Assembly (NCBI GenBank): GCA_965231065.1
Contig: OZ246410.1
Coordinates: 405,448 to 429,447 of the forward strand
Reading direction: 5' to 3'
From: an uncultured Methanosarcinales archaeon
GTDB lineage: Archaea > Nanobdellota > Nanobdellia > Woesearchaeales > UBA10107
Length of the DNA stretch: 24,000 nucleotides
The position numbers and the translations under genes were made by a program. Within the stretch, counting starts at the first letter, position 1. Each line of letters starts with the position of its first letter. Below, piece by piece: positions 1 through 17,680 of the stretch. Under the pieces are notes generated by a model. That model had not been told where the DNA came from and made no database searches. It was given only the letters and a program-made list of their open reading frames with translations.

Positions 1-546
1 CGTGGTATACCTGTTTATGACGTACAACGGGGCGGCAGGGTTACGTATCATGGTCCGGGACAGATTGTCGGCTATGCAATCCGGAAGATTTCTCTACGAG
101 ACTTGGATGCGCACTTGAATGGGTTAGAAGAGATCATGCTCAGGACATTAGGAGACTATACGATTGCTGCTCATAAAAGCTACGAAGTGGATGACAGGCA
201 TAAGCGATTGCCTGGTGCTTGGTACCTAATACATGGCAAAGAGTACAAACTCGGTGCGATCGGTGTTGAAGTGCGCGATGGTATCACGATGCACGGCTTC
301 GCATTGAATGTCAATACGAATCTTGATCACTTCGATTATATCGATATGTGCGGTTTCAAAGACAAGCAGGCAGTATCGATGCAGAAGCTGTTGGGTCATT
401 CAGTCAGTCTGAATGAGGTAAAAAAGAAGATTGTGAAATCATTTGGTGATGTGTTCAAGTATGATACAGTAGACGAAAAGGCATTTCCTTCGCTGATCAC
501 CGCGGTACAGAAATTCTACTCAAAATCACTTCAGCCCGAGCAGTAA
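1..546 (+). CDS. lipB: Octanoyltransferase (lipoyl(octanoyl) transferase LipB), 5'-partial at window edge
   Basis: Frame 1 is open from base 1, so the TTG at 103 used by the ORF track is internal. Bases 1-102 translate to RGIPVYDVQRGGRVTYHGPGQIVGYAIRK, which carries the LipB RGG-x-TYHGPGQ motif. KLGAIGVEV...HGFALNVNTNL...CG follows (catalytic Lys/Cys region). Confidence 0.85.
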   Translation, partial: RGIPVYDVQRGGRVTYHGPGQIVGYAIRKISLRDLDAHLNGLEEIMLRTLGDYTIAAHKSYEVDDRHKRLPGAWYLIHGKEYKLGAIGVEVRDGITMHGFALNVNTNLDHFDYIDMCGFKDKQAVSMQKLLGHSVSLNEVKKKIVKSFGDVFKYDTVDEKAFPSLITAVQKFYSKSLQPEQ

Positions 547-1800
547 TTCATCAGGATCTTCGAGATATTCTTTCACCTCATTCATGAACCGTGCTGCTTC
601 TGCACCGTCTGTTATCCTGTGGTCAAACGTCAATGATAATGGCAGCACTTTCCTAATCTGTACTTTTCCATCGACTGCAATCGGTTTTTCATATATCTTT
701 CCTGTCAGCAATATGGCAACCTGCGGATAATTGATGATTGGCGTCGCAAAAGTACCTCCAATGGCGCCGATATTGGTAATCGTGAATGTCCCGCCTTGTA
801 ATTCTCCTAAATCTATCTCTCGTTTCCTTGTCTTTTCAGCAAGGTCCTGGAGCTCTTTCGCGGTCTGCTCGATCGTCTTTGCATCGGCGATCTTCAGTAC
901 CGGAACAATCAGACCATCTTGTGTATCGACAGCGAATCCGATGTTGTAATATTTCTTGATGACGATCTCTTCATTCGCATCATCGATCGTCGCGTTCAGA
1001 TATGGATGGTTCTTCAATGCAGCAATAACTGCCTTGATGATGAATGGCATAAATGTCAGATGAACTCCTTTCTTTTCCAATCTCTTCTTCTCTTTTTCTC
1101 GTATTTCGGTAAGGTGTGTTACGTCGGCTTCATCGAATGAAGTCACCGGCGCTGTCTTCTGCGATGCTTCGAGCATACGGTTCGCAACTGTCCTCCGCAC
1201 TCCTTTCACTGGAATCTTCTCAGTGTATCCGTAGAGATCGTAATCACGTGCGGTAATTTTAACACCGCTTGCGAGTGTGGATGATTTTTCTCCTGATACT
1301 TTTCCTGCAGCGTTCAGCACATCTTCCTTTGTTATGATGCCACCCTTGCTGCTCGGCATAATTTTTCCCAAATCAACTCCTTTTTCCTTCGCTAGTCTCT
1401 TGACTGCAGGCAATGCTTTGACATGAGCGACCAGATGTTCTTGGGCCTTCTTTACATGTTCGGCAGTCATTTTCGGTGGTTCTTCATACTCAGGTAGAGA
1501 ACCGACGACACCAAACTCTTTTTTAGGAACTGATTGCTTTGCAGATGATTCTTTTGCTGCTTTGCCTTCATCAATTGAGACAAGAACGGAACCGACTTTC
1601 ACGGTCTGACCTTCTTTCACATATAGTTTGAGGATCTTTCCTGCTTTCGGACTTGGAATTTCGACAATCGCTTTATCTGTCTCTATCTCGACAAGGACTT
1701 GATCTTGTTTAACACTATCGCCGACTTTAACCCTCCATTTGACGATCTCTCCTTCAGAAATGCCTTCTCCGACATCAGGAAACTTGAATTCAAATGTCAT
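526..1800 (-). CDS. 2-oxoacid dehydrogenase complex E2 (dihydrolipoamide acyltransferase)
   Basis: N-terminal lipoyl domain (VEIETDKAIVEIPSP), peripheral-subunit-binding domain (PAVKRLAKEKGVDLGKI) and a C-terminal catalytic domain with DHRITDG. Its start overlaps the E1-beta stop by 4 nt. Its 3' end overlaps lipB convergently by 21 nt. Confidence 0.95.
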   Translation of the reverse strand: MTFEFKFPDVGEGISEGEIVKWRVKVGDSVKQDQVLVEIETDKAIVEIPSPKAGKILKLYVKEGQTVKVGSVLVSIDEGKAAKESSAKQSVPKKEFGVVGSLPEYEEPPKMTAEHVKKAQEHLVAHVKALPAVKRLAKEKGVDLGKIMPSSKGGIITKEDVLNAAGKVSGEKSSTLASGVKITARDYDLYGYTEKIPVKGVRRTVANRMLEASQKTAPVTSFDEADVTHLTEIREKEKKRLEKKGVHLTFMPFIIKAVIAALKNHPYLNATIDDANEEIVIKKYYNIGFAVDTQDGLIVPVLKIADAKTIEQTAKELQDLAEKTRKREIDLGELQGGTFTITNIGAIGGTFATPIINYPQVAILLTGKIYEKPIAVDGKVQIRKVLPLSLTFDHRITDGAEAARFMNEVKEYLEDPDELLLGLK

Positions 1801-2768
1801 TTCATCACCTTTTCGATCGCTGCAATGATTCGTTCTTCGCTCGGCAGATAATTGAGTTCGTTCCGATACAGCGGCACAATCACATCATGACCGGTGACCC
1901 GTTCTACCGGCGCTTCCAGATCAAAGATCGCTTTCTCATTTATCTGTGCGATGACTTCTGCCCCGACACCAAATGAACGTTGTGCTTCATGCACGATCAC
2001 ACATCTTCCTGTTTTCTTTACTGAGTTTATTATTGTTTCGGTATCTAGAGGAGAAAGCGTACGCAGATCGATCAATTCAACATCATATTTATCTCCAAGT
2101 TGCTGCAATGCTTTCTGTGTTATCCACAGCATAGCGCCATACGTGATGATGGTCACATCTTCTCCTTTCTTGACAATGTTTGCTTTACCGATTGGTATCG
2201 TGTATTCTTTTTCAGGAACTTCTTCCTTGATCGCACGATATACCCGCTTCGGTTCCATAAATATCACCGGATCAGGATCCCGAATGGCACTGATCAACAA
2301 ACCTTTTGCCTGATACGGTGTCGAAGGCATCACTACTTTCAAGCCGGGAGTATGACAATAGTATGCTTCCGGTGAATCAGAATGATGCTCTAGTGCTCTG
2401 ATGCCTCCTGATGTTGGAAATCGGATGACCATCGGACACGTAAGATTCCCTCTGGTCCTGTTACGCATACGCGCAGCATGGTTGATGAGTTGGTTCAATG
2501 CCAATAAACTAAACCCTTCGAATTGCATCTCTGCGACTGGCTTGAATCCGTACATCGCTAATCCGATGGACGTTCCTGCGATGGCAGACTCTGCTAACGG
2601 TGTGTCGAATACCCGCTTGTCGCCAAATTGTTTCAGCAAACCTTCAGTGACTCTGAACACACCGCCGTCGACACCGACATCTTCGCCGAGTACTAATACT
2701 GACTTGTCTTTCTGCATTTCCTGCTTCAGCGCAAGATTCAATGCCTCGACCATATTTAACAATGCCAT
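1797..2768 (-). CDS. 2-oxoacid dehydrogenase E1 component, beta subunit
   Basis: 323 aa with a typical E1-beta sequence (LLNMVEALNLALKQEM, FDTPLAESAIAG, transketolase-like C-terminal domain). It sits between the E2 and E1-alpha genes. Confidence 0.95.
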   Translation of the reverse strand: MALLNMVEALNLALKQEMQKDKSVLVLGEDVGVDGGVFRVTEGLLKQFGDKRVFDTPLAESAIAGTSIGLAMYGFKPVAEMQFEGFSLLALNQLINHAARMRNRTRGNLTCPMVIRFPTSGGIRALEHHSDSPEAYYCHTPGLKVVMPSTPYQAKGLLISAIRDPDPVIFMEPKRVYRAIKEEVPEKEYTIPIGKANIVKKGEDVTIITYGAMLWITQKALQQLGDKYDVELIDLRTLSPLDTETIINSVKKTGRCVIVHEAQRSFGVGAEVIAQINEKAIFDLEAPVERVTGHDVIVPLYRNELNYLPSEERIIAAIEKVMK

Positions 2769-3628
2769 TAGCGTGACCTCAGCCAGTTTGCGATATGTTG
2801 TGCTGTCTTTTTCTCATGACCGACGAAACTATGATTTGCATTCTTGATGATGACACTGCCAAATCTTTTTGATCGTGTCTCATTCTCAAGAGTGTTGATG
2901 TATGATTCTACTGGTTTTGTCCTATTCTGCTCCTTTGTACCGAACAGTACCATCATCGGCGTCTTGATCTTACTGAATTCTCTGAAGTTTCCGTCATAAT
3001 AAAATAATCTGCTTTCTATTCTTTTGAGGTCAGAGATGCTGTTGAAACGCTGTGCATCGTAAGCACCTGGTTCATCGGTAACATATTGTGTCGGATGACT
3101 TCGTAACCATTGTTTTGCTTTCTTTGCTGCTTGTTTCCAATCTCTTCCCAATCTTTTCTTATAGACAAGATAATCATCACACGGCGCAAGCAGTATGATT
3201 GCTTGCACTCTCCTGTCTTTTGTTTTATAGATGTAATACGCTGCTTTCTGACATCCCGTACTATGTCCTGCCAGGATTATGTTCTTGTACCCGAGCGATT
3301 GGACTGCATCAATCGCTGCTTTCACATCGTAGACACTGTCTTCGAATTTCTCATGAGCAGTTCCAATATGATCTGAATACTTTTTACTTTCTTTTTTAAC
3401 TTTCGAGACAACATCATGGCCCCTAGTATTTAAGAGGAAGACATCAAAGCCATTCTTCATCAAGGTCGGAGACATCTTTACACTTAGTCCGCTGTAAAAG
3501 TTTCCTCCCATGCCATGGATCGACACGATGACGCTCTTTTGTTTTTTTGACAGCAGGAGACCGTGCAGAGTATATTTATCATTTGTTTTGAACTCGATCA
3601 GTTCTCCTTTTGTCTTATTTTCTATCAT
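2768..3628 (-). CDS. alpha/beta-fold hydrolase (esterase/thioesterase-like) embedded in the OADH operon
   Basis: Nucleophile elbow GHSTGC, oxyanion-region HGMGGNF, and candidate acid and His residues (LLAPCDD, NANHSF). Its ATG directly abuts the E1-alpha stop (TGAATG). Its TAA shares one base with the E1-beta ATG (TAATG). Confidence 0.8.
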   Translation of the reverse strand: MIENKTKGELIEFKTNDKYTLHGLLLSKKQKSVIVSIHGMGGNFYSGLSVKMSPTLMKNGFDVFLLNTRGHDVVSKVKKESKKYSDHIGTAHEKFEDSVYDVKAAIDAVQSLGYKNIILAGHSTGCQKAAYYIYKTKDRRVQAIILLAPCDDYLVYKKRLGRDWKQAAKKAKQWLRSHPTQYVTDEPGAYDAQRFNSISDLKRIESRLFYYDGNFREFSKIKTPMMVLFGTKEQNRTKPVESYINTLENETRSKRFGSVIIKNANHSFVGHEKKTAQHIANWLRSR

Positions 3629-4705
3629 TCAGTATCTCTTCTCCTTGAATTGTTTGATGTATTCCAGCTGTTCTTTCTGCTGCGGTGTCATCTCTTTGAA
3701 TACGTACTTGAACATATCTTCTATCGCTGGCGGTTTCATCGCATCCACTGCCGCGACTTCTTTGTTTATTTCTACTTCGATGCCTTTCATGAGTTTTTCT
3801 TCATCTTTCATGGTCCACAGTTTATTTTTGAGAAGATATTTCCTGAATCTGTCGATAGGATCTTTTCTGATCCATTCCTTGACTTCTTTTTCAGTACGAT
3901 AGCGGGTTGCATCGTCTGCAGTGGTATGATCGGCAAGCCGATAGGTGTACATCTCGATGAGTGTCGGTCCTTCATTGTTCCGCGCTTTCTCGGCAGCGTA
4001 GTTCACCGCAAAATAGAGCGCAAAGACATCATTGCCGTCTACTTTCAGTCCTTCGATGCCGGCATCGATGGCTTTCTGCGCCAATGTTTTCGCCGCTGTC
4101 TGTTTCGTGACCGGCACTGAGATGGCATATTGGTTGTTCTGACAGACAAAGATCGCAGGAACATTCATGACGCCAGCGAAATTCAATGCTTCATGGAAAT
4201 CTCCTTCCGAAGTGGCTCCATCGCCGAAGAAGCAAAGTGTGACTGCTTTCTTATTCTTTAATTTCATGCCCCATGCGATGCCGGTTGCATGCGGTATCTG
4301 TGAACCGACAGGAATTGACATTGGTAGATTTGTCGGAGCGTTCTCGGAATAGTTGCCGCGTTCATCTCCTCCCCATACCAAAACGGGGTTTCGTAATGGC
4401 ATACCGCGATATAATTGTGCTGCAAGTTCTCTGAATGAAGGGATCATCCAGTCATCTTTTGTCAGCGGAGCGACAGCGCCGACTTGCGCTTCCTGGCCTT
4501 TGACTTGTGCAAAGGTCCCGATTCTTCCCTGTCGCTGTAATGCGAGCAGTTTTTCATCGAATCGTCTCGCGGTCACCATGGTCTTGTACATCTTAAGCAT
4601 GATGTCTCTTGGAATCTTTGGCATTAGTTTCTTATCTGCATTACCGTCTTCATCAAGAATCTTCAGATAGTCGACTTTGAACTGGGCTATTGTCTCTCTA
4701 GGCAT
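3629..4705 (-). CDS. 2-oxoacid dehydrogenase E1 component, alpha subunit (TPP-dependent)
   Basis: TPP-binding motif GDGATSEGDFHEALNFAGVMNVPAIFVCQNNQYAIS. The SD-like sequence AAGAGGT lies just upstream of the ATG. Confidence 0.95.
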   Translation of the reverse strand: MPRETIAQFKVDYLKILDEDGNADKKLMPKIPRDIMLKMYKTMVTARRFDEKLLALQRQGRIGTFAQVKGQEAQVGAVAPLTKDDWMIPSFRELAAQLYRGMPLRNPVLVWGGDERGNYSENAPTNLPMSIPVGSQIPHATGIAWGMKLKNKKAVTLCFFGDGATSEGDFHEALNFAGVMNVPAIFVCQNNQYAISVPVTKQTAAKTLAQKAIDAGIEGLKVDGNDVFALYFAVNYAAEKARNNEGPTLIEMYTYRLADHTTADDATRYRTEKEVKEWIRKDPIDRFRKYLLKNKLWTMKDEEKLMKGIEVEINKEVAAVDAMKPPAIEDMFKYVFKEMTPQQKEQLEYIKQFKEKRY

Positions 4706-4831
4706 GTAACCTCTTGAAATATTCTATCTGCTGCAGCCGTTTCACTGCTGCTTTCCTGCTTCGGTATCCTTTGCTTAATTTTTTGACACCAGTATGATTG
4801 AATACATAATATAAACCTTTGATTTTTTTGA

Positions 4832-5779
4832 TCATTGTTTCCTCAGGATGTTCTTGATGAATAATTCTCCTGCTTTATATGAAGACCTTACGAATGGCCC
4901 TGAAAAGACACCTTTGAATCCGATTTTCTCTCCTTCCTTTTTGTATTCTTCAAATACTTCAGGCCTTACCCATTCCTCGATCTTCAGGTGTCTTTGTGAT
5001 GGTCTTAAGTATTGTCCGATGGTGAATATCTCGACGTCTATCCTTCTGAGATCCTTCATGGTCTGCAAGACTTCTTCTTTTGTCTCCCCCAGACCGACCA
5101 TGATGGCTGATTTCGTGATTATTTTTTGATTTAATTTTTTGACTGTTTCGAGGATCGATAACGACTGCTTGTAATTTGCTCGAATATCACGAACTTTTCT
5201 TTGCAATCGTTCAACAGTCTCGACATTGTGAGAGATGACGTCTGGTTTTGCATCAACAACATTTTTCAGCAATGAGACATCTCCTCTGAAGTCAGGTATC
5301 AAGACTTCAACAATCATCTCGGGAAATTCTTTTTTTACTGCACGGATGCATTCAGCGAAATGATTGCTGCCTTGATCTTCTAGATCATCCCGGTCGACTG
5401 AAGTGATGACGATATAGTCAAATACATGTGCTCCATCGATAGAACTCATCTCTTTCAATGCAGAGACTAATTTCTTGGGCTCATCTTTATCCAATATCTG
5501 TCCCTGTGCTGCGGTCTTCACATTGCAGAATCTGCAGCCGCGTGTACAGGTATCTCCAAGTACCATGAATGTTGCAGTACCTGAAGACCAACATTCAGAA
5601 AGGTTCGGGCACTTGCCTTCGACACAGATAGTGGTCAGTCCGTATTTTTTGATCGTCGCCTTGACGTCTTCATATTTTTCAGTCGGTGGTTTGATTTTGA
5701 ACCATTCTGGTTTATGAGAATGTGAAGAAGCGCTCTGCTGAGCACTATCCCTAAATACTACGTTCACCGCGTCTACCAT
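4832..5779 (-). CDS. lipA: Lipoyl synthase (radical SAM)
   Basis: Auxiliary cluster motif CVEGKCPNLSEC and radical-SAM motif CTRGCRFC. Overall LipA-like sequence and length. Confidence 0.95.
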   Translation of the reverse strand: MVDAVNVVFRDSAQQSASSHSHKPEWFKIKPPTEKYEDVKATIKKYGLTTICVEGKCPNLSECWSSGTATFMVLGDTCTRGCRFCNVKTAAQGQILDKDEPKKLVSALKEMSSIDGAHVFDYIVITSVDRDDLEDQGSNHFAECIRAVKKEFPEMIVEVLIPDFRGDVSLLKNVVDAKPDVISHNVETVERLQRKVRDIRANYKQSLSILETVKKLNQKIITKSAIMVGLGETKEEVLQTMKDLRRIDVEIFTIGQYLRPSQRHLKIEEWVRPEVFEEYKKEGEKIGFKGVFSGPFVRSSYKAGELFIKNILRKQ

Positions 5780-5906: not shown

Positions 5907-6863
5907 TTGCACATCAGCAAAACTAAGGTATTGATAGTTCTCTCTGTTCTTTTGATAGCTTCAGTGGTAGTCAATGTCGCTGGGTATAACTATTATCAGA
6001 ATAAGTACAAGCCAAAATTCTCATTACTTTCTCCGGATATCGCCTGGATGGAAACAGATGACTTTTTGGCTATTCAGAACCAATACTCTGTGTCATATCA
6101 GGGCATGAAGCAGGAGATGCTTGAGTTGCTGAACAGTTCTAAGGTGCACGGAAATTATGGAGTCTACTTTGAGGATCTGAACACCGGATCGTGGATCGGT
6201 ATCAACGAACGCGATGAATTCATCCCGGCCAGCTTACTGAAAGTTCCTATCATGGTCGCTGTTTTGAAGAAAGTCGAGAAAGGAGATATCGCATTGGATC
6301 AACGAGTTACAATTGTTGCTGAAGATATCAATCTGAATTCAGGTACACTCGGTACGCAGGGAGCAGGATATGTATTGACCGTCAAGGATTTGCTTACCTA
6401 CCTCATCAAAGAATCAGATAACACTGCCTTATTTACACTCTACCGGAACTTTTTGACTGACAATGATGTGTTGGAGGCAAGACTTGCTATGGGTATTTCC
6501 CTCTATGGTGATAAAGCAGTTCTTGGTCCAAAACATTATAGCAACATATTGCGATCACTCTATTATTCTGCGTATCTGCGCAGAACATTCTCTGAATTAG
6601 CATTATCCATCATGTCTGAGACTGATTATGATACCCAGATGAAGGCAGGACTGCCTCCGAATGTCCATATCTCTCATAAGATCGGATTCTTCAAAACGCC
6701 AGAGGGTGTTGAAGGATATCATGATTGCGGCATCATCTATCATCCAAGAAAGCCATATATGTTGTGCATCATGAGCAAGAATACAGATCAGGCTACTGCC
6801 AAATTTGTAATTTCTAATCTTTCAAAATTAGTATACGATTATGTCGATAAGATAAGTAAGTAG
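5907..6863 (+). CDS. Membrane-anchored serine hydrolase, class A beta-lactamase-like fold
   Basis: N-terminal TM helix (VLIVLSVLLIASVVVNVAGY). SxxK motif (ASLLKV), SDN motif (ESDNTA) and a KTG-like HKIGF. TTG start; an in-frame TAG lies immediately upstream. Confidence 0.7.
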   Translation: MHISKTKVLIVLSVLLIASVVVNVAGYNYYQNKYKPKFSLLSPDIAWMETDDFLAIQNQYSVSYQGMKQEMLELLNSSKVHGNYGVYFEDLNTGSWIGINERDEFIPASLLKVPIMVAVLKKVEKGDIALDQRVTIVAEDINLNSGTLGTQGAGYVLTVKDLLTYLIKESDNTALFTLYRNFLTDNDVLEARLAMGISLYGDKAVLGPKHYSNILRSLYYSAYLRRTFSELALSIMSETDYDTQMKAGLPPNVHISHKIGFFKTPEGVEGYHDCGIIYHPRKPYMLCIMSKNTDQATAKFVISNLSKLVYDYVDKISK

Positions 6864-7493: not shown

Positions 7494-7516
7494 ATCTGCT
7501 GTTATTGTCTTAAGTG

Positions 7517-7524
7517 TATTTATA
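7517..7524 (-). promoter_or_regulatory. TATA box (TATAAATA) for the FGP-repeat/thioredoxin operon
   Basis: 23 nt upstream of the ATG at 7493. Confidence 0.5.
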
Positions 7525-7540
7525 CTTTTTCAAAGTAAGC

Positions 7541-7548
7541 TTTAAAAA
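7541..7548 (+). promoter_or_regulatory. TATA box (TTTAAAAA) for the acyl-CoA synthetase gene
   Basis: 24 nt upstream of the ATG at 7573. Divergent partner of the 7517-7524 box. Confidence 0.5.
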
Positions 7549-7572
7549 CACTGTTCTCTGTATCTGTCCTTT

Positions 7573-8838
7573 ATGGCTCTCGATACGTTCTTCAATCCGC
7601 GATCAATGGCAGTCATCGGCGTCTCTTCGAATCCACAGAAGATCGGCAGGGTGGTATTTGATACATTGCTGAATACAGGTAAGAGAGTATATCCTGTCAA
7701 TCCGAATGCGCAACTTGTCTCGGGCGTCAAATGTTATCCTTCATTGACTGATGTGATAAGAGAGAAAGGAAGGGTTGATGTCATTGTTGTCGCTGTGCCG
7801 GCAGATGTTACCGTGCAGGTGATGGAAGAAGCAGGAAGACAGGGTATAACGCATGCAGTCATCGTCAGCGCAGGTTTCAAGGAAGTCGGTAACCTCGTTG
7901 CAGATAAAAAACTAGTCGATATCTGCGCGAAATATAAGATACAGGTTATCGGTCCGAACTGTCTCGGTATCTTGGATTCATATTCTGGGTTTGATGCAGT
8001 ATTCTTGCCGCCTGATCGGCTGAAACGGCCGAAAAAAGGGGGCATCAGTTTCATCACGCAGTCAGGAGCGACCGGTTCTGTCGTCCTTGATAAGATCGGT
8101 GCTATCGGCGTCTCAAAGTTCATCAGCTATGGGAATGCATTGAATCTCAATGAGACTGATTATTTAGAATATCTGGGCAGGGACAGGACTACCAAGATCA
8201 TCTGTATCTATCTGGAGACCGTCAAGGACGGAAGACGTTTCATGAACGTTGTATCGAAGATTAAGAAACCAATTGTCGTATTGAAAGGCGGAAAGACAAG
8301 AGAGGGCGGTAGTGCAACACTATCACACACTGGTTCTCTGGCAGGAGATGCTGAGATTTACTCAGGCGTGTTCAAACAGCTTGGCATGATCGAGGTCGGT
8401 GGCATCGAACAGATGATCGATGTGCTCTCTGTTTTATCTTCAAAAATCAAAGGAAAAACGATCGGTGTTGTCACCAATGGAGGTGGCTATGGTATTCTCT
8501 CTGTCGATGATCTTATCGCAGCCGGTCTTGACTTCAAAGGTCCCTTTATCGATCTCTTTGGCGATGCGACCAGTGAAGGATACCGAAAGGCGATCAAGGC
8601 GATGAAGACTGATATTATTTTGTGTAATATTTTGTTTCAGACCCCTTTGATCGACGAATCCATCATTGATGTTCTTGTTCAGGCAAGTAAAAAAAAGAAC
8701 ATTGTCACTGTCTGCACCGGTTCTGAATATACGCAGCATATGAAACAGATTTTAAGTAGTCATGGGGTCTGTGTCATAGATACTCCTGAAGAAGCAGTCG
8801 ATGCGATGCGGTTGGTCTTGAAGAATGAACGTTATTGA
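7573..8838 (+). CDS. Acyl-CoA synthetase (ADP/NDP-forming), alpha-type subunit
   Basis: N-terminal CoA-binding domain (FFNPRSMAVIGVSSNPQKIG), succinyl-CoA-synthetase-like ligase domain and phospho-His region LSHTGSLAGD. There is no ATP-grasp (beta) part in this ORF or next to it. Confidence 0.85.
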   Translation: MALDTFFNPRSMAVIGVSSNPQKIGRVVFDTLLNTGKRVYPVNPNAQLVSGVKCYPSLTDVIREKGRVDVIVVAVPADVTVQVMEEAGRQGITHAVIVSAGFKEVGNLVADKKLVDICAKYKIQVIGPNCLGILDSYSGFDAVFLPPDRLKRPKKGGISFITQSGATGSVVLDKIGAIGVSKFISYGNALNLNETDYLEYLGRDRTTKIICIYLETVKDGRRFMNVVSKIKKPIVVLKGGKTREGGSATLSHTGSLAGDAEIYSGVFKQLGMIEVGGIEQMIDVLSVLSSKIKGKTIGVVTNGGGYGILSVDDLIAAGLDFKGPFIDLFGDATSEGYRKAIKAMKTDIILCNILFQTPLIDESIIDVLVQASKKKNIVTVCTGSEYTQHMKQILSSHGVCVIDTPEEAVDAMRLVLKNERY

Positions 8839-13346: not shown

Positions 13347-13370
13347 TCGCTTCATAATTCCTCTTTCTAT

Positions 13371-13445
13371 GCCCAAGTAGCATAGCTTGGATAGTGCACA
13401 CGGTTGCGGTCCGTGAGATCCGGGGTTCGAATCCTCGCTTGGGCG
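13371..13445 (+). tRNA. tRNA-Arg (anticodon GCG)
   Basis: Hand-folded cloverleaf of 75 nt. Acceptor GCCCAAG/CTTGGGC, D stem GCAT/GTGC, anticodon stem CACGG/CCGTG with loop TTGCGGT, T arm CGGGG-TTCGAAT-CCTCG, discriminator G. No encoded CCA and no intron. Confidence 0.9.
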
Positions 13446-13543
13446 TTTATTTTCAATTCTATCTATTATTTTCTATATGGAAAGTAATTAGTGTTCTATT
13501 TTCAATATATGTTGTCACTTTTAAGTAATAAATATTAGAAAAG

Positions 13544-13551
13544 TATATAAA
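13544..13551 (+). promoter_or_regulatory. TATA box (TATATAAA) for the GGDEF gene
   Basis: 22 nt upstream of the ATG at 13574, the same geometry as the housekeeping genes. Confidence 0.5.
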
Positions 13552-13573
13552 TGGGTAATACCTACCTAATTAC

Positions 13574-14497
13574 ATGAAAAAGAAGTCTTCTCAGAAGCTG
13601 AAACAGATCATACGAGAGAATAGTCTATTGGAAGAGTTGAATGATCGTCTCAAAGGAGATGTTTCTAGACTCAGTAAAGAAAACGCAGGAATGGAAGACC
13701 AACTTCGTACTCTTCGTCCTAAAGTCGGCAGTTATGAGATGATCTTACGAGCAGCAAAAGAGACATATCCTAAATTAAAGGATGTTCCGCTTGATCTAAT
13801 TCCAGAACGTCTTATCGAACTTTTATCTAATGCAGAACAGGAAGCACTTCAGCATAAGAAGAATTCAATGACTGATGCGTTGACTGGTCTACATAATGTA
13901 CTTTATTATCAGAAGAGTCTTGATGGAGAGGTAGAAGATGCAAGACAAAATAGTACTCCTTTATCCTTGGCATATCTTGATATTGATTTCTTCAAGCAGG
14001 TTAATGATTATAGCGGGCATCCTACGGGAGATGCAATCCTAAAACAAGTCGCAGATCTCCTGACGACATTGCCGAAAACGTACGAGCTTGCTCGTATTGG
14101 TGGCGAAGAGTTTTCAATATTGGTTCCTGGAGGTTACATTTATCCGACGACTCGTGATGATGTCGTGAATGGCTCTTCTGTGTATAAACGGTTGGAAAAT
14201 CTCAGAAAGACTATCCATGATACTGCATTTGTAGACGCAGACGGGAAACCGTATGTACATCATAATAAACGAAGACAGGTTGTCCCGTTAAGTGTTTCAA
14301 TCGGACTTGTTGATTATAACGGTCGCGATACTCCTGCTGAATATGTTAAAAAAGTAGATAGGATACTCTATGCTGCAAAACGAAGAGGAAGAGATAGGAT
14401 CATGACTGATGTTAAGACCTCTCCTGAGACATCTCAGCTTCGATTAAGTGCATTAGAAAAAGCCTTACTTACTAGTGGTGAAAAGAGTAACATTTAA
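13574..14497 (+). CDS. GGDEF-domain protein (diguanylate-cyclase-like) with an N-terminal coiled coil
   Basis: DALTGLHN, metal and substrate region LAYLDIDFFKQVNDYSGHPTGD, intact active-site RIGGEEF, and C-terminal SIGLV...RILYAAKRRGRDR. There is no RxxD I-site five residues upstream of GGEEF (KTYE instead). The first roughly 100 aa are predicted coiled coil with no sensor domain. Confidence 0.85.
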   Translation: MKKKSSQKLKQIIRENSLLEELNDRLKGDVSRLSKENAGMEDQLRTLRPKVGSYEMILRAAKETYPKLKDVPLDLIPERLIELLSNAEQEALQHKKNSMTDALTGLHNVLYYQKSLDGEVEDARQNSTPLSLAYLDIDFFKQVNDYSGHPTGDAILKQVADLLTTLPKTYELARIGGEEFSILVPGGYIYPTTRDDVVNGSSVYKRLENLRKTIHDTAFVDADGKPYVHHNKRRQVVPLSVSIGLVDYNGRDTPAEYVKKVDRILYAAKRRGRDRIMTDVKTSPETSQLRLSALEKALLTSGEKSNI

Positions 14498-14504
14498 ATA
14501 TATA

Positions 14505-14942
14505 ATGGACTACGAAACGATGGCAATGAGCAATACAAATACGGTGGCAGGATTGGAAGATCTTGAGTTCGTCAAGGGAAAGCTATTTCATTACCCTGAT
14601 CGATTCATGAACACAGGCCAGAAACTTGGTTTCTTCTACGTGCTTGCACCAGGTGTAAATCTCATGGACCATGCTGTTATTCTTGGGACGGTCATGTCTC
14701 ACGGATTTAAACGAAGAGCAATCACACCAGCTGGTGGTTTCATAGGTATTCATGTTCCTTACGCTGATGTCGATTACAAATCAACCGGCATGAATGTAGC
14801 GAGATACTTCTCTGACAAGAATATCAAAGTAGGCACCGCGAGTCTCATCGCACTTGAAGGCAATTACGATGTAGCTCAAAAACGACTTGATGATCTTGTA
14901 TCATTCTCTTTGAAAGAAGGCGAACATAAGGAATTACGTTAG
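14505..14942 (+). CDS. Hypothetical protein, co-transcribed partner of the GGDEF gene
   Basis: An ATG at 14505 lies 7 nt after the GGDEF stop. The ORF track uses a GTG at 14475 that would overlap the GGDEF gene. No correctly spaced TATA box of its own. About 145 aa, soluble, no family recognised. Confidence 0.55.
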   Translation: MDYETMAMSNTNTVAGLEDLEFVKGKLFHYPDRFMNTGQKLGFFYVLAPGVNLMDHAVILGTVMSHGFKRRAITPAGGFIGIHVPYADVDYKSTGMNVARYFSDKNIKVGTASLIALEGNYDVAQKRLDDLVSFSLKEGEHKELR

Positions 14943-14944
14943 TT

Positions 14945-15118
14945 CTAGATAGAAAATACAAACAGCGCCCACAATAGAGAACAAGCACCAATGATATATG
15001 GCACAACTGTTCTCGCTTTATAGTTCAATTTTCCAGAAATCGCGCTCTTGACTACTCGTTTTGTCTTCAGTCTCAGGATAAATAACGTCACTAACACCTT
15101 GTCTGTTAAAAAACTCAT
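14945..15118 (-). CDS. Possible 57-aa tail-anchored membrane peptide
   Basis: My own translation, below the ORF-track cutoff: MSFLTDKVLVTLFILRLKTKRVVKSAISGKLNYKARTVVPYIIGACSLLWALFVFSI. GGTG lies 7 nt upstream of the ATG. It sits 30 nt downstream of the helicase stop and fills an otherwise empty 206-nt gap. Confidence 0.25.
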   Translation of the reverse strand: MSFLTDKVLVTLFILRLKTKRVVKSAISGKLNYKARTVVPYIIGACSLLWALFVFSI

Positions 15119-15148: not shown

Positions 15149-16720
15149 TCACGAATCAGTATTTAAATCTTTCTTGGAGTACTTATTCAGGTTCATCTGG
15201 CCTTTCCGCTTCGTTTCTTTGATCTCTTCGGTCTTTTCACCTACTTGTTCCTTGACCGATTTCGCTACTGCTTCTCCGATTAGCGCTTTCAATGACGTCA
15301 TGTCTGCTTTCTTGACATCTCCGAGATCTTTGATACCGTTGCTGAATAATTTTCGAGCTCTGACCCTTCCTATTTCTCTCAACCGTAACAACGGCAAGAG
15401 CTCTTCTTTCGCTCCATATTTCATCCTGGTCCTTAATTTTGAAACCTCTCGCGCGAAGTGAGGTCGTGCAATCAATTTGGCGATCTCTTCAGATGAGTAG
15501 AGAAGCCAATCCGCGGTCTCTAACTTCGCTCTGCTCTCTCCCGGACGGACATCATAGTTCTCCAGGATATATTCATCATCTTTTTCTTCGATCCATTCAG
15601 AGAAGAATTTCGCGGTCTTCAACGAATCCATGAAATCATCGTATTCCGGCTCGAATTCAGCAGGTTCATCGACCAGCAGCTCATCTTGCTTTTCCACTGC
15701 CAATCCGGTATAATCATCGTATTCTCTTGTCTTCATATTCAGCCGCGGTCGTATTTCTAATGTAAATGAGATCATCTGCAAGAGTCCGAATATCTTTGGA
15801 ATTTCCGTCTTTCTGATACTCTTGATGAATTCATACGCAGTCAGCGGATCGATATAGAGTTCAGATACTTTCCTGCCAAGTTCTGTTGCAGCAATGCGTT
15901 CATTCAACAAATCGGCTGCAGAGGCAAAGTCAGATTTCTTGCCGCTGATGAATCCAAAACCTTCAAGCATATGAATCATTCTGTCAATGATTTTTTCTAA
16001 TTTCGCCATGTCTTCAAACTGATATGCCCAGAATGTCTTTGAGAAGAAATCAATGAGCTTTTCTCTGCTATTGACGAAACCTGATGCGACGAGACTGAGG
16101 ATGTATGTTCTCAAGACCGGTTCTACTGCTAATTTCGATGATATGTCTTCGGGATCTCCCTTGACATACTGCTCGACTGCTGCTTCTTTCTCTGATTCAG
16201 TCGTCGTGATGATGATTGATTCTCCTTCCGTATCGTATTTCGGACGTCCAGCACGTCCTGACATCTGAAGGTATTCAAGGACAGGGATGTATGTGTATCC
16301 TCTGATACCGAATCTTTTGAGATCTCTTATTATAGTCCTGAAAGCCGGCAAGTCTACACCTGCTGCCAAGGTTGGTGTGCAGCAGATTATTTTTATTGAT
16401 CCGGTCCTGAAATTATCTTCGATAAGTTCTTTTTGCTTTGATGTAAGTCCTGCATGGTGGAATGCGATGCCTTGCTGGATGACTTCTGCTAATTTCTCAC
16501 ACTGACTCGTCGGTCTTGGTAGGTGTAGTATCTCTTTTGATAATTCTATATTTCTCTTTTCCTGTTTTTTCTGCAGGAATTTTGAGATGTCTGCTGCTAC
16601 TTTCTCTGCGGATCGTTTTGCGTTGACGAAGATCAACGCTTGTTTGTTTTTTTCTAAGGTGTCGAGAACTACGTTGATGATCGGATCACTGGATGATTGT
16701 TTTATCTGCAACTCTTTCAT
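15149..16720 (-). CDS. hel308: Hel308/Ski2-type helicase, C-terminal half only (RecA2, winged helix, ratchet, HhH)
   Basis: Starts at ATG 16720 (M41 of the tracked ORF). Contains ALIFVN (motif IV region), GIAFHHAGL, TPTLAAGVDLPA (motif V), QMSGRAGRP (motif VI) and a C-terminal HhH (LREIGRVRARKLFSNGI). There is no Walker A or DExH box anywhere in the ORF. Confidence 0.85.
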   Translation of the reverse strand: MKELQIKQSSSDPIINVVLDTLEKNKQALIFVNAKRSAEKVAADISKFLQKKQEKRNIELSKEILHLPRPTSQCEKLAEVIQQGIAFHHAGLTSKQKELIEDNFRTGSIKIICCTPTLAAGVDLPAFRTIIRDLKRFGIRGYTYIPVLEYLQMSGRAGRPKYDTEGESIIITTTESEKEAAVEQYVKGDPEDISSKLAVEPVLRTYILSLVASGFVNSREKLIDFFSKTFWAYQFEDMAKLEKIIDRMIHMLEGFGFISGKKSDFASAADLLNERIAATELGRKVSELYIDPLTAYEFIKSIRKTEIPKIFGLLQMISFTLEIRPRLNMKTREYDDYTGLAVEKQDELLVDEPAEFEPEYDDFMDSLKTAKFFSEWIEEKDDEYILENYDVRPGESRAKLETADWLLYSSEEIAKLIARPHFAREVSKLRTRMKYGAKEELLPLLRLREIGRVRARKLFSNGIKDLGDVKKADMTSLKALIGEAVAKSVKEQVGEKTEEIKETKRKGQMNLNKYSKKDLNTDS

Positions 16721-16743
16721 TATAATTTTCTTTTCTCTTTTGA

Positions 16744-16983: not shown

Positions 16984-17406
16984 TCAGAGAACGTAATTCC
17001 TGAGTAAAAGACCGATTAAGCCGAATATGAGAAATCCGATTGTTTTCTTTGTAATACTGGAGATATTTTCCTTATGCATCAAACTTCCTTCTGGGAATCC
17101 GTAAAGGAATATTAGTGAGCTTACAATAAAATTAGGATTTACACTAAACAGTATCCCGAGTACTCCATAATAACTCTTGAAGTAGTATAGGACAGCAATT
17201 GTCATTATTATGATGAGTCGCTGATATAGCAAAGATAGGGGGGAGTTGTAAAATGCTGCGAATAAAATTATCAAAAATAATACTCTGCTGAAAATAACAA
17301 GATTCTTCTTTCCGGGAACAACTTCCTCTTTCGCGATCTTAGAAAGTCCAAAACCAACAAACACACCGAGATATGAAATAAGCAAAACAATAAGTTCAGT
17401 GAGCAT
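16984..17406 (-). CDS. Hypothetical polytopic membrane protein
   Basis: 140 aa with 4-5 hydrophobic helices. Its start overlaps the stop of the Dph2 fragment by 11 nt. No family recognised. Confidence 0.6.
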   Translation of the reverse strand: MLTELIVLLISYLGVFVGFGLSKIAKEEVVPGKKNLVIFSRVLFLIILFAAFYNSPLSLLYQRLIIIMTIAVLYYFKSYYGVLGILFSVNPNFIVSSLIFLYGFPEGSLMHKENISSITKKTIGFLIFGLIGLLLRNYVL

Positions 17407-17680
17407 GCTGCATCACATGATACTCTGGTTTGCTGAAATAAGAATGTCCGAAATGTAACAGTAGATCAATGCCGTGCTCTTCAAGACCGCGTGGCAGATC
17501 ACAACCGCCGAACGCAGAACCGCCCCAGATGATGACGCGTGCATCAGTCTGTGATTCGATCGCATCCTGTATCTCTTTCGCCCGAGGTTTCAGACCATCT
17601 GCCAACTGCACGCAAACTACTTTTGCCTTCTCTTTCTTGATCGTTTCAATCGCCTTGTCGAGTTCTATTTCGTATGTCAT
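17396..17680 (-). CDS. dph2: Dph2 (diphthamide synthase) N-terminal domain fragment, truncated after GHSY
   Basis: The 94 aa align by eye along their length with the first ~85 residues of archaeal Dph2 as I recall it (AK-V-IQ..GL, YGACD-like FGGCD with the first cluster Cys, HxGHSY). The ORF then stops, whereas full-length Dph2 is about 330-340 aa. Confidence 0.7.
   Translation of the reverse strand: MTYEIELDKAIETIKKEKAKVVCVQLADGLKPRAKEIQDAIESQTDARVIIWGGSAFGGCDLPRGLEEHGIDLLLHFGHSYFSKPEYHVMQHAH

Follow-up and report, generated by a model that had tools for sequence, protein, structure and literature searches.

A GGDEF cyclase gene paired with a predicted pseudo-GGDEF gene in a clade of uncultured archaea

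Diguanylate cyclases are almost exclusively bacterial, and no archaeon has yet been found to contain their product, cyclic dimeric GMP (c-di-GMP) (PMC10249747). The only archaeal GGDEF/HD-GYP open reading frame (ORF) cited from a complete genome is RCIX2274 of Methanocella arvoryzae (REC-PAS-PocR-GGDEF-HD-GYP; bioRxiv 10.1101/2021.11.05.467447). GGDEF and HD-GYP genes in archaeal metagenome-assembled genomes (MAGs) are generally suspected of being contamination (PMC10249747; bioRxiv 10.1101/2021.11.05.467447), and for MAGs of Asgard and DPANN archaea, over 300 BLAST hits have been mentioned without verification (PMC8646023). In Pseudomonas aeruginosa, the stalk-plus-GGDEF cyclase SiaD is activated by a small partner, SiaC, that binds the stalk (PMC8457831). 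Here, we describe a GGDEF gene and the small gene directly downstream of it (the partner) in a 24,000-nt stretch of contig OZ246410.1 from an uncultured archaeon, referred to as the window. The arrangement differs from that of RCIX2274, which is multidomain and bifunctional, whereas the window encodes a stalk-only cyclase and, as a separate protein, a predicted pseudo-GGDEF. We tentatively favor the view that the pair is a native GGDEF module of a small clade of uncultured archaea and that its pseudo-GGDEF partner would control the cyclase in trans.

The cyclase and its archaeal locus

The features of the locus are listed below; coordinates are positions of the window unless another locus (L002, L004, L006, L009, etc.) is named.

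13370..13446, forward strand: tRNA-Arg(GCG), left boundary of the module (ARAGORN; Rfam tRNA, 57 bits)
13447..13573, forward strand: conserved non-coding region before the GGDEF gene, with two palindromes and a TATA box
13574..13858, forward strand: cyclase N-terminal stalk, amino acids (aa) 1-95, heptad-rich, predicted helical, no Pfam domain
13859..14404, forward strand: GGDEF catalytic domain, aa 96-277 (Pfam, TIGR00254, alignment to PleD 1w25)
14405..14497, forward strand: cyclase C-terminal tail and stop, with TAA at 14495-14497 (ORF list)
14493-14500, forward strand: partner TATA box TTTAAATA, overlapping the GGDEF stop codon
14526..14942, forward strand: partner gene, 138 aa from Met8 (four homologues), predicted catalytically dead GGDEF fold

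The ORF at 13574-14497 (forward strand) encodes a GGDEF protein of 307 aa, which matched Pfam GGDEF PF00990 with an E value of 1.8e-27 (96.5 bits; cut-off, 23.8) and TIGR00254 over residues 96 to 277 (102.4 bits; cut-off, 37.4). The motifs DIDFFKQVND and RIGGEEF were both found. As seen in the alignment to PleD (1w25), the metal-binding residues D136 and D138 (DIDFFK) are kept, as are the phosphate-binding K269 and R273; K141, the guanine-binding N144, and the guanine-specifying D153 (in GHPTGD) match their PleD counterparts, and the active-site hairpin R174-I-G176-G-E-E-F180 corresponds to RYGGEEF of PleD. Judged by these residues, the protein is a complete GGDEF diguanylate cyclase with its catalytic residues intact, as a first-pass annotation of the window had proposed, and it is predicted to make c-di-GMP from GTP. 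Hypr GGDEF enzymes, the cyclic GMP-AMP (cGAMP) synthases, were reportedly defined by Hallberg and colleagues in 2016 by a Ser or Thr in place of Asp at the guanine-specifying position (GHxxG-D); since D153 is kept, the cyclase does not carry this Hypr signature.

The inhibitory RxxD site (I-site), whose place is five residues before GG[DE]EF, is absent from the cyclase, which has KTYE where PleD has RAID. The same position reads KTYE, KSYE, and KEYE in the three archaeal cyclases of the window, L006, and L003, and the aligned bacterial relatives retain RxxD; the loss of the I-site is a character of the clade. Two clade-specific insertions in the catalytic domain, one with a conserved G-x-x-Y-x-H-H, are also common to these three proteins, and the C-terminal tail can be aligned only within the set of four archaeal cyclases. 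The first approximately 95 aa matched no Pfam domain and gave only weak coiled-coil matches, so that the earlier description of a cyclase with no sensor domain, a putative coiled coil in its place, and no I-site held. In a crude heptad-periodicity test, the N terminus scored above 99.4% of shuffled sequences (p ~0.006) and that of the L006 orthologue above 89% only. The motif LKDVPL(D/E)xxPE is conserved between the two stalks. A helical N-terminal stalk that dimerizes the cyclase is therefore a plausible reading of this segment, as far as these periodicity and coiled-coil signals go.

The surroundings of the gene are archaeal, as the first-pass annotation had stated. A Pfam scan of 30 ORFs in the window identified an ATP-dependent DNA ligase, Rpr2 (RNase P), a diphthamide-synthase fragment, Elp3-like and RsmB-like proteins, a Hel308 C-terminal half with Helicase_dom4_arc, a 2-oxoacid dehydrogenase complex, and an ADP-forming acyl-CoA synthetase. 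The same scan returned no EAL, HD-GYP, or PilZ domain, again in agreement with that annotation, and Rfam models found three tRNAs in the window and no c-di-GMP riboswitch. The named relatives of the ligase come from a MAG labelled Methanosarcinales (75% identical) and an Aenigmatarchaeota MAG (44%).

Given the suspicion of contamination that attaches to GGDEF/HD-GYP genes in archaeal MAGs (bioRxiv 10.1101/2021.11.05.467447), we considered whether the pair is an artefact, either bacterial contamination or a chimeric join. A dip in GC content to 0.356 at 13501-14000 and the GC content at third codon positions (GC3) of the cyclase gene, 0.30, speak for such an origin. However, the order GGDEF-partner-Hel308 recurs in L002/L003, L004/L005, and L006/L007 (ENA, JGI, and Logan assemblies), and the same junctions are present in at least seven independent assemblies from four lineages. 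This recurrence rules out a chimeric join, the possibility against which the adjacency had originally been flagged for checking. Hel308 is 68 to 73% identical among the pair-bearing loci, which therefore represent four lineages of one clade. Moreover, archaeal TATA boxes stand at native spacing before both genes, the non-coding region upstream is conserved between two genomes, and in L002 and L006 the GC3 of the pair equals that of its neighbors. The artefact explanation is thus effectively refuted. The locus is genuinely archaeal, and the GGDEF gene counts among the better-supported examples of this signalling enzyme in an archaeal genome.

The region upstream of the cyclase is also informative. 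It is much better conserved than the coding sequence: over the 125 nt before the ATG, the window and L006 (L006 1563-1681) share 74% identity, although the two genomes differ by 10 GC points and their cyclase proteins are 41% identical. This region contains a 16-nt palindrome at 13469-13484 (TTTTCTATATGGAAAG; conserved form, TTTTCTATATRGAAAR), which is perfect in L006 (TTTTCTATATAGAAAA) and is found at the equivalent site of L009 (7476-7497), a related locus that lacks the pair. A second near-palindrome lies at 13517-13526 (ACTTTTAAGT; ACTTWTAAGT). The conserved region is probably an operator for a dimeric regulator. No Rfam match to a c-di-GMP riboswitch was obtained in this region at E values up to 1. 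The TATA box TATATAAA at 13544-13551 lies 22 nt before the ATG and is conserved in L006. In line with the spacing noted earlier for housekeeping genes, the same 22 nt are found at gdh, the nitroreductase gene, and orf413, and on these motifs the cyclase gene has an archaeal-type, native-looking promoter.

The proposal that the cyclase gene had become adapted for expression in its host agrees with this promoter but not with its codon usage, as its GC3 is the lowest of 25 window genes. The partner has a GC3 of 0.39, and 22 of the 23 other window genes range from 0.42 to 0.60, the exception being orf140 (0.37). The contrast between the pair and its neighbors is weaker in L004 and absent in L002 and L006. 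We take the low GC3 as a sign of atypical codon usage and not of contamination; the contrast seen in the window could stem from low expression, slow amelioration, or transfer between members of the clade.

The partner gene and its predicted fold

The partner ORF is open from 14505 to 14942, with an ATG 7 nt past the GGDEF stop, and had been annotated as a protein of 145 aa beginning there. The open frame is present as described, but the start is not supported by the family: the alignment of the four homologues begins with an invariant Met8 (14526), and the start given by NCBI is Met6 (14520). The protein is probably translated from Met8, which gives a length of 138 to 140 aa, not 145. With the start corrected in this way, the statement that the partner lacks a TATA box of its own at the proper distance proved wrong. 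The octamer TTTAAATA lies upstream of all four partner genes, at a distance of 24 to 25 nt from the conserved ATG, and the rest of the spacer differs from gene to gene; the same octamer is used with 22-nt spacing by gdh and the nitroreductase gene. The partner transcript is therefore probably initiated separately and near-leaderless, to judge from the placement of the box. Leaderless transcription is predicted to begin at ~13574 for the cyclase gene and at ~14523-14526 for the partner. No T-rich terminator was seen between the two genes, so read-through from the cyclase gene into the partner is possible. Since the gap between the genes contains this conserved box at all four loci, it is not the promoter-free gap of a single operon. 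The idea of a two-gene module thus holds for the pairing, which is conserved in four of four cases, but not for co-transcription from a gap without a promoter.

An exhaustive phmmer search of 1.84 billion representatives retrieved three homologues of the partner, with E values of 1e-25, 6e-24, and 4e-11 and identities of 46%, 45%, and 31%. A profile search of 5.8 billion clusters added none; a scan of GTDB genomes found none, a metagenome scan re-found only L003, and a word-index search with the partner matched only the partner itself. All four genes of the family lie directly downstream of a GGDEF gene and beside the gene for the Hel308 C-terminal half, and L009, which lacks the GGDEF gene, lacks the partner as well, so that the two co-occur wherever either is found among these loci. 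The partner is a real gene of a near-orphan family limited to this archaeal clade. It had been described as having no recognizable family, and by sequence this is correct, with no match in Pfam, NCBIfam, or PADLOC; neither did the partner, or any of the 30 window ORFs, match PilZ or another profiled c-di-GMP receptor domain in Pfam. By predicted fold, however, the description does not stand.

An AlphaFold2 (AF2) model built from the four-sequence alignment reached a best predicted local distance difference test score (pLDDT) of 72 and a predicted template modeling score (pTM) of 0.70, with the element order alpha-beta-alpha-beta-beta-alpha-beta-alpha-beta. When this model was compared with the PDB by Foldseek, the top ten matches were all GGDEF domains (E values from 1.3e-4; probability, 0.97 to 1.00), with query-normalized TM scores (TMq) of 0.49 to 0.63. 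They include 3ezu (E value, 1.3e-4), WspR, DgcR, a GGEEF protein of Vibrio cholerae (TMq, 0.63), and GcbC. Lower in the list were PA0861 (TMq, 0.68; alignments of approximately 150 to 170 columns), class III cyclases, and archaeal GTP cyclohydrolase III. In a library of viral structures, the best full-length match was a phage "diguanylate cyclase AdrA" (TMq, 0.59). A permissive hhalign alignment, which is not significant, places the partner and GGDEF families collinearly and in the expected register, setting the partner segment KLGFFYV on beta1, the strand with DxD as its usual end, and AITPAGGFIGIHVP on ARIGGEEFSILVP. By eye, the partner sequence RLDDLxxxSLKEGEHK can be aligned with the K(V/A)DxxLYxAKxxGR(D/N)R helix of GGDEF domains.

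The residues needed for catalysis are missing from this predicted framework. In the four-member alignment, no Asp, and hence no DxD, occurs in the beta1 strand (LGFFYV(L)), and the hairpin is xG[GACS][FL][IL]G in place of GG[DE]EF. The positions before the hairpin are KRRA, RRHA, RGSA, and DLKS in the four proteins and are neither conserved nor an RxxD. Because the DxD, GGDEF, and RxxD motifs are all absent, we read the partner as a pseudo-enzyme: it is predicted from the model to be a stand-alone GGDEF (palm) fold without catalysis, a pseudo-GGDEF. If so, a GGDEF fold can decay beyond recognition by sequence and yet stay as a separate gene beside a live relative.

Gain and loss of the pair and its possible roles

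When 123 GGDEF domains were placed in a neighbor-joining tree, those of the three archaeal cyclases known at full length were monophyletic. These cyclases are 41 to 50% identical to one another and at most approximately 43% identical to any bacterial domain. A single old acquisition from a foreign source, followed by fast divergence, is plausible from these comparisons. Of the earlier suggestion of horizontal acquisition, the single foreign origin is thus retained, but no donor lineage can be named: the nearest bacterial domains, at approximately 40 to 43% identity, are mostly unnamed.

The history of the pair within the clade can be followed in L009. This locus keeps the frame that runs from the nitroreductase and ligase genes to a 57-aa gene and Hel308, and its ligase is 75% identical to that of the window. 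The cyclase and the partner are both absent from it, and their site holds a thioredoxin-like gene, an inverted tRNA-Arg, and a gene for a putative lipoprotein of 132 aa. This joint absence indicates that the two genes were gained or lost together. The flanks of the pair also vary: upstream, a tRNA-Arg is found in the window versus a STAS/kinase module in L006, and downstream, the 57-aa gene in the window versus a DUF4383 gene in L006. As for the tRNA-Arg between ligase and Hel308, it lies on opposite strands in the window (13370-13446) and in L009 (6953-7027), a sign that the DNA was locally inverted or rearranged at the very site that differs in having or lacking the pair.

Imperfect inverted repeats surround the pair at 13440-13482 and 14943-14971 (26 nt at 73% and 16 nt at 88%). 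The left arm begins in the 3' end of tRNA-Arg, and the right arm falls for the most part within the coding 3' end of the 57-aa gene (VFSI-stop). A mobile cassette ended by these repeats was considered and rejected, as matches with three mismatches are near chance expectation and the right arm is mostly coding.

These data bear on two other explanations. The partner could be functionally unrelated to the cyclase, a fast-evolving, lineage-specific neighbor with its own promoter. Its conserved TATA box and its lack of a detectable sequence family are what such a gene would show, and within one clade of conserved synteny the adjacency could be inherited and not selected. Nevertheless, the pair stays intact while its flanks differ between lineages, both genes are missing together in L009, and a GGDEF-like predicted fold beside a GGDEF gene is unlikely to be a coincidence; we regard this explanation as unlikely. 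The other is that the pair is an antiviral defence module of the CBASS (cyclic oligonucleotide-based antiphage signaling system) or Pycsar (pyrimidine cyclase system for antiphage resistance) type, consisting of a cyclase and an effector, a role that the first-pass annotation had raised. Two genes that include a nucleotide cyclase, a patchy presence (L009 has no pair), and the atypical GC3 of the cyclase gene fit this idea. Against it, neither protein matched any family in PADLOC-DB at E values up to 1, the partner is devoid of killing domains (membrane, nuclease, TIR, or other), and the synteny is that of housekeeping genes, with no defence island and a Hel308 neighbor that is stable in four lineages. 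The defence role is dropped here as very improbable.

The reading that we tentatively favor, control of the cyclase by the partner in trans, starts from what the cyclase lacks: an enzyme with neither a sensor domain nor an I-site would need to be controlled from outside. In this model, the stalk would dimerize two intact GGDEF domains, which would convert two GTP into c-di-GMP. The pseudo-GGDEF partner would bind the cyclase, either mimicking a second GGDEF domain at the active-site face, and thereby inhibiting it, or docking on the stalk; by stabilizing a productive stalk dimer, it would instead activate the enzyme. In either case, it would replace the missing sensor domain and the missing feedback site and set cyclase activity in trans, for which SiaC and SiaD provide a precedent (PMC8457831), and its separate promoter would allow the ratio of partner to cyclase to be tuned.

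Several results weigh against this model. The partner gave no Pfam match at E values up to 10 with any of the four members, hhalign scored it against GGDEF alignments with a probability of 0.1%, and a profile search of the PDB returned nothing. The single-sequence AF2 model had a pLDDT of 38 and was uninformative, and the fold comes from one AF2 run on a four-sequence alignment, in which two of the five models exceeded a pLDDT of 69. In addition, a partner-switch module of STAS and kinase/phosphatase proteins adjoins the cyclase in L006 and is possibly the real regulator there.

A second possibility, less probable than control in trans but still to be taken seriously, is that the partner is a dedicated receptor or effector for c-di-GMP, the product of the cyclase, with the signal passed on by protein contact, as in the degenerate GGDEF receptors PelD and PopA. 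The strict conservation of the pair and its joint absence in L009 suit this role equally, no other recognizable receptor occurs in the window, and the predicted GGDEF-like fold is itself suggestive, as the established classes of c-di-GMP receptor include degenerate GGDEF domains (PMC12448109). On the other hand, the partner is a single domain of 138 aa with no output domain, and none of its four members has an RxxD at the positions given above. The known degenerate-GGDEF receptors bind c-di-GMP through an RxxD I-site. The proposal of a novel receptor or effector thus survives as a rival, but the GGDEF-like fold moves the favored role from receptor or effector towards pseudo-enzyme regulator.

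The predicted palm fold also allows an asymmetric catalytic heterodimer of a live and a dead palm, making a product other than c-di-GMP, such as a linear dinucleotide. In a gap-free alignment by eye, the invariant K137 and H141 of the partner would fall at the phosphate-binding Lys/Arg positions of GGDEF domains, and the loss of the I-site from the cyclase is compatible with a changed product. However, the alignment of partner to GGDEF is without statistical support, and the cyclase has its own putative dimerizing stalk and the full residue set for the homodimeric reaction. To our knowledge, no GGDEF enzyme works as an asymmetric live/dead heterodimer, and we consider this arrangement improbable. 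The most far-reaching reading of the pair would be a self-contained cyclic-dinucleotide pathway of bacterial origin, built on an obligate hetero-complex of cyclase and pseudo-GGDEF that acts as the first c-di-GMP synthase/receptor pair of an archaeon or as an asymmetric enzyme with a non-canonical nucleotide. Such a pathway has, in our estimate, a small chance of being correct; if true, it would establish functional c-di-GMP-type signalling in Archaea for the first time and show a dead GGDEF domain put to a new use.

Returning to control in trans, regulation by a separate pseudo-GGDEF would add a novel type of pseudo-enzyme control to a very large family of enzymes, and other "orphan" genes beside signalling enzymes may likewise be hidden paralogues. 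The synthesis of c-di-GMP in archaea is directly testable at this locus with one recombinant protein.

Neighboring genes and comparison with known systems

The Hel308 gene downstream of the pair (15149-16723, reverse strand) encodes only the C-terminal half of the protein (Helicase_C, HTH_61, archaeal domain 4, and HhH). It starts right after a tRNA-Ile, which its listed GTG start overlaps. The same split is seen in L009 (7850-9418), and no DEAD/RecA1 half was found anywhere in the window. In L004 (1225-3428), an ORF of 217 aa with LAGLIDADG/Hom_end similarity overlaps the 5' end of Hel308. These sequences suggest that the helicase gene is split and may retain part of an intein. Between the partner and Hel308, and convergent with the partner, lies the gene for a conserved tail-anchored protein of 57 aa (MSFLTDKVLVTLFILRLKTKRVVKSAISGKLNYKA...; 14945-15118, reverse strand) that belongs to no Pfam family. 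It is also found in L004 (824-997), L002 (~1090-1260), and L009 (~7507-7680). We considered whether this membrane protein belongs to the module as a third component and rejected the idea, since it is present in L009, where the pair is absent; it therefore belongs to the Hel308 side of the locus.

Elsewhere in the window, the diphthamide-synthesis gene (17396-17680, reverse strand) encodes 94 aa that cover Pfam positions 2 to 59 of 302. It is equally short in L004 (4143-4424) and so looks like a conserved truncated or split gene and not a sequencing error. The regions 526-5779 (reverse strand) and 103-546 (forward strand) encode a complete 2-oxoacid dehydrogenase set of E1 alpha, E1 beta, and E2, lipoyl synthase, and a fragment of lipoate-protein ligase, with an alpha/beta hydrolase gene between E1 alpha and E1 beta. 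A gene of the class A beta-lactamase family is located at 5907-6863. In L006, positions 9-1516 (reverse strand), divergent from the cyclase, encode a STAS protein of 149 aa and a protein of 334 aa in which an RsbW-like HATPase_c kinase is fused to a SpoIIE/PP2C phosphatase, a partner-switching module in an archaeal contig that is, by analogy, reminiscent of SiaA/SiaB/SiaC.

Among known systems, SiaD-SiaC resembles the pair in several respects. Both combine a helical stalk (putative in the window) and a GGDEF domain, without a sensor, with a small dedicated partner, recognized here by gene pairing, and the STAS and RsbW-like kinase/SpoIIE phosphatase proteins of L006 recall SiaA/SiaB. The SiaD structure (PDB 7e6g) was among the PDB matches found. 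The two systems differ in that the window partner is GGDEF-like by prediction and the window cyclase has no I-site; SiaC belongs to a different family, DUF1987. The NCBIfam model of SiaD (NF038266) matched the GGDEF domain only, with 102 bits, far under the equivalog cut-off of 290, and the window cyclase is therefore not a SiaD orthologue. Cyclases of the PleD/WspR type share the full set of catalytic residues, the GGEEF sequence, and dimerization through N-terminal helices (predicted for the window), whereas the window protein differs in lacking a receiver domain, in having KxYE for RxxD and two insertions, and in its archaeal host.

Bacterial degenerate GGDEF proteins, such as the receptors PelD and PopA and the regulators GdpS and CsrD, are alike in that catalysis is lost and the fold re-used; the NCBIfam models of GdpS, CsrD, and LapD were among the hits of the cyclase domain. 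These proteins are, however, recognizable by sequence and usually fused to other domains, and the receptors among them keep RxxD. The partner, in contrast, is a separate gene of 138 aa beside a live cyclase, with no RxxD, and is invisible to profiles. A live and a degenerate palm working together are found, by analogy, in the C1/C2 halves of class III adenylyl cyclases and in the palms of Cas10. The two halves of those enzymes build one composite active site, whereas a GGDEF cyclase needs two complete sites. Overall, compared with these systems, the cyclase is an unusually well-anchored case of a GGDEF protein in archaea, and a separate, sequence-invisible partner with a predicted pseudo-GGDEF fold would be new.

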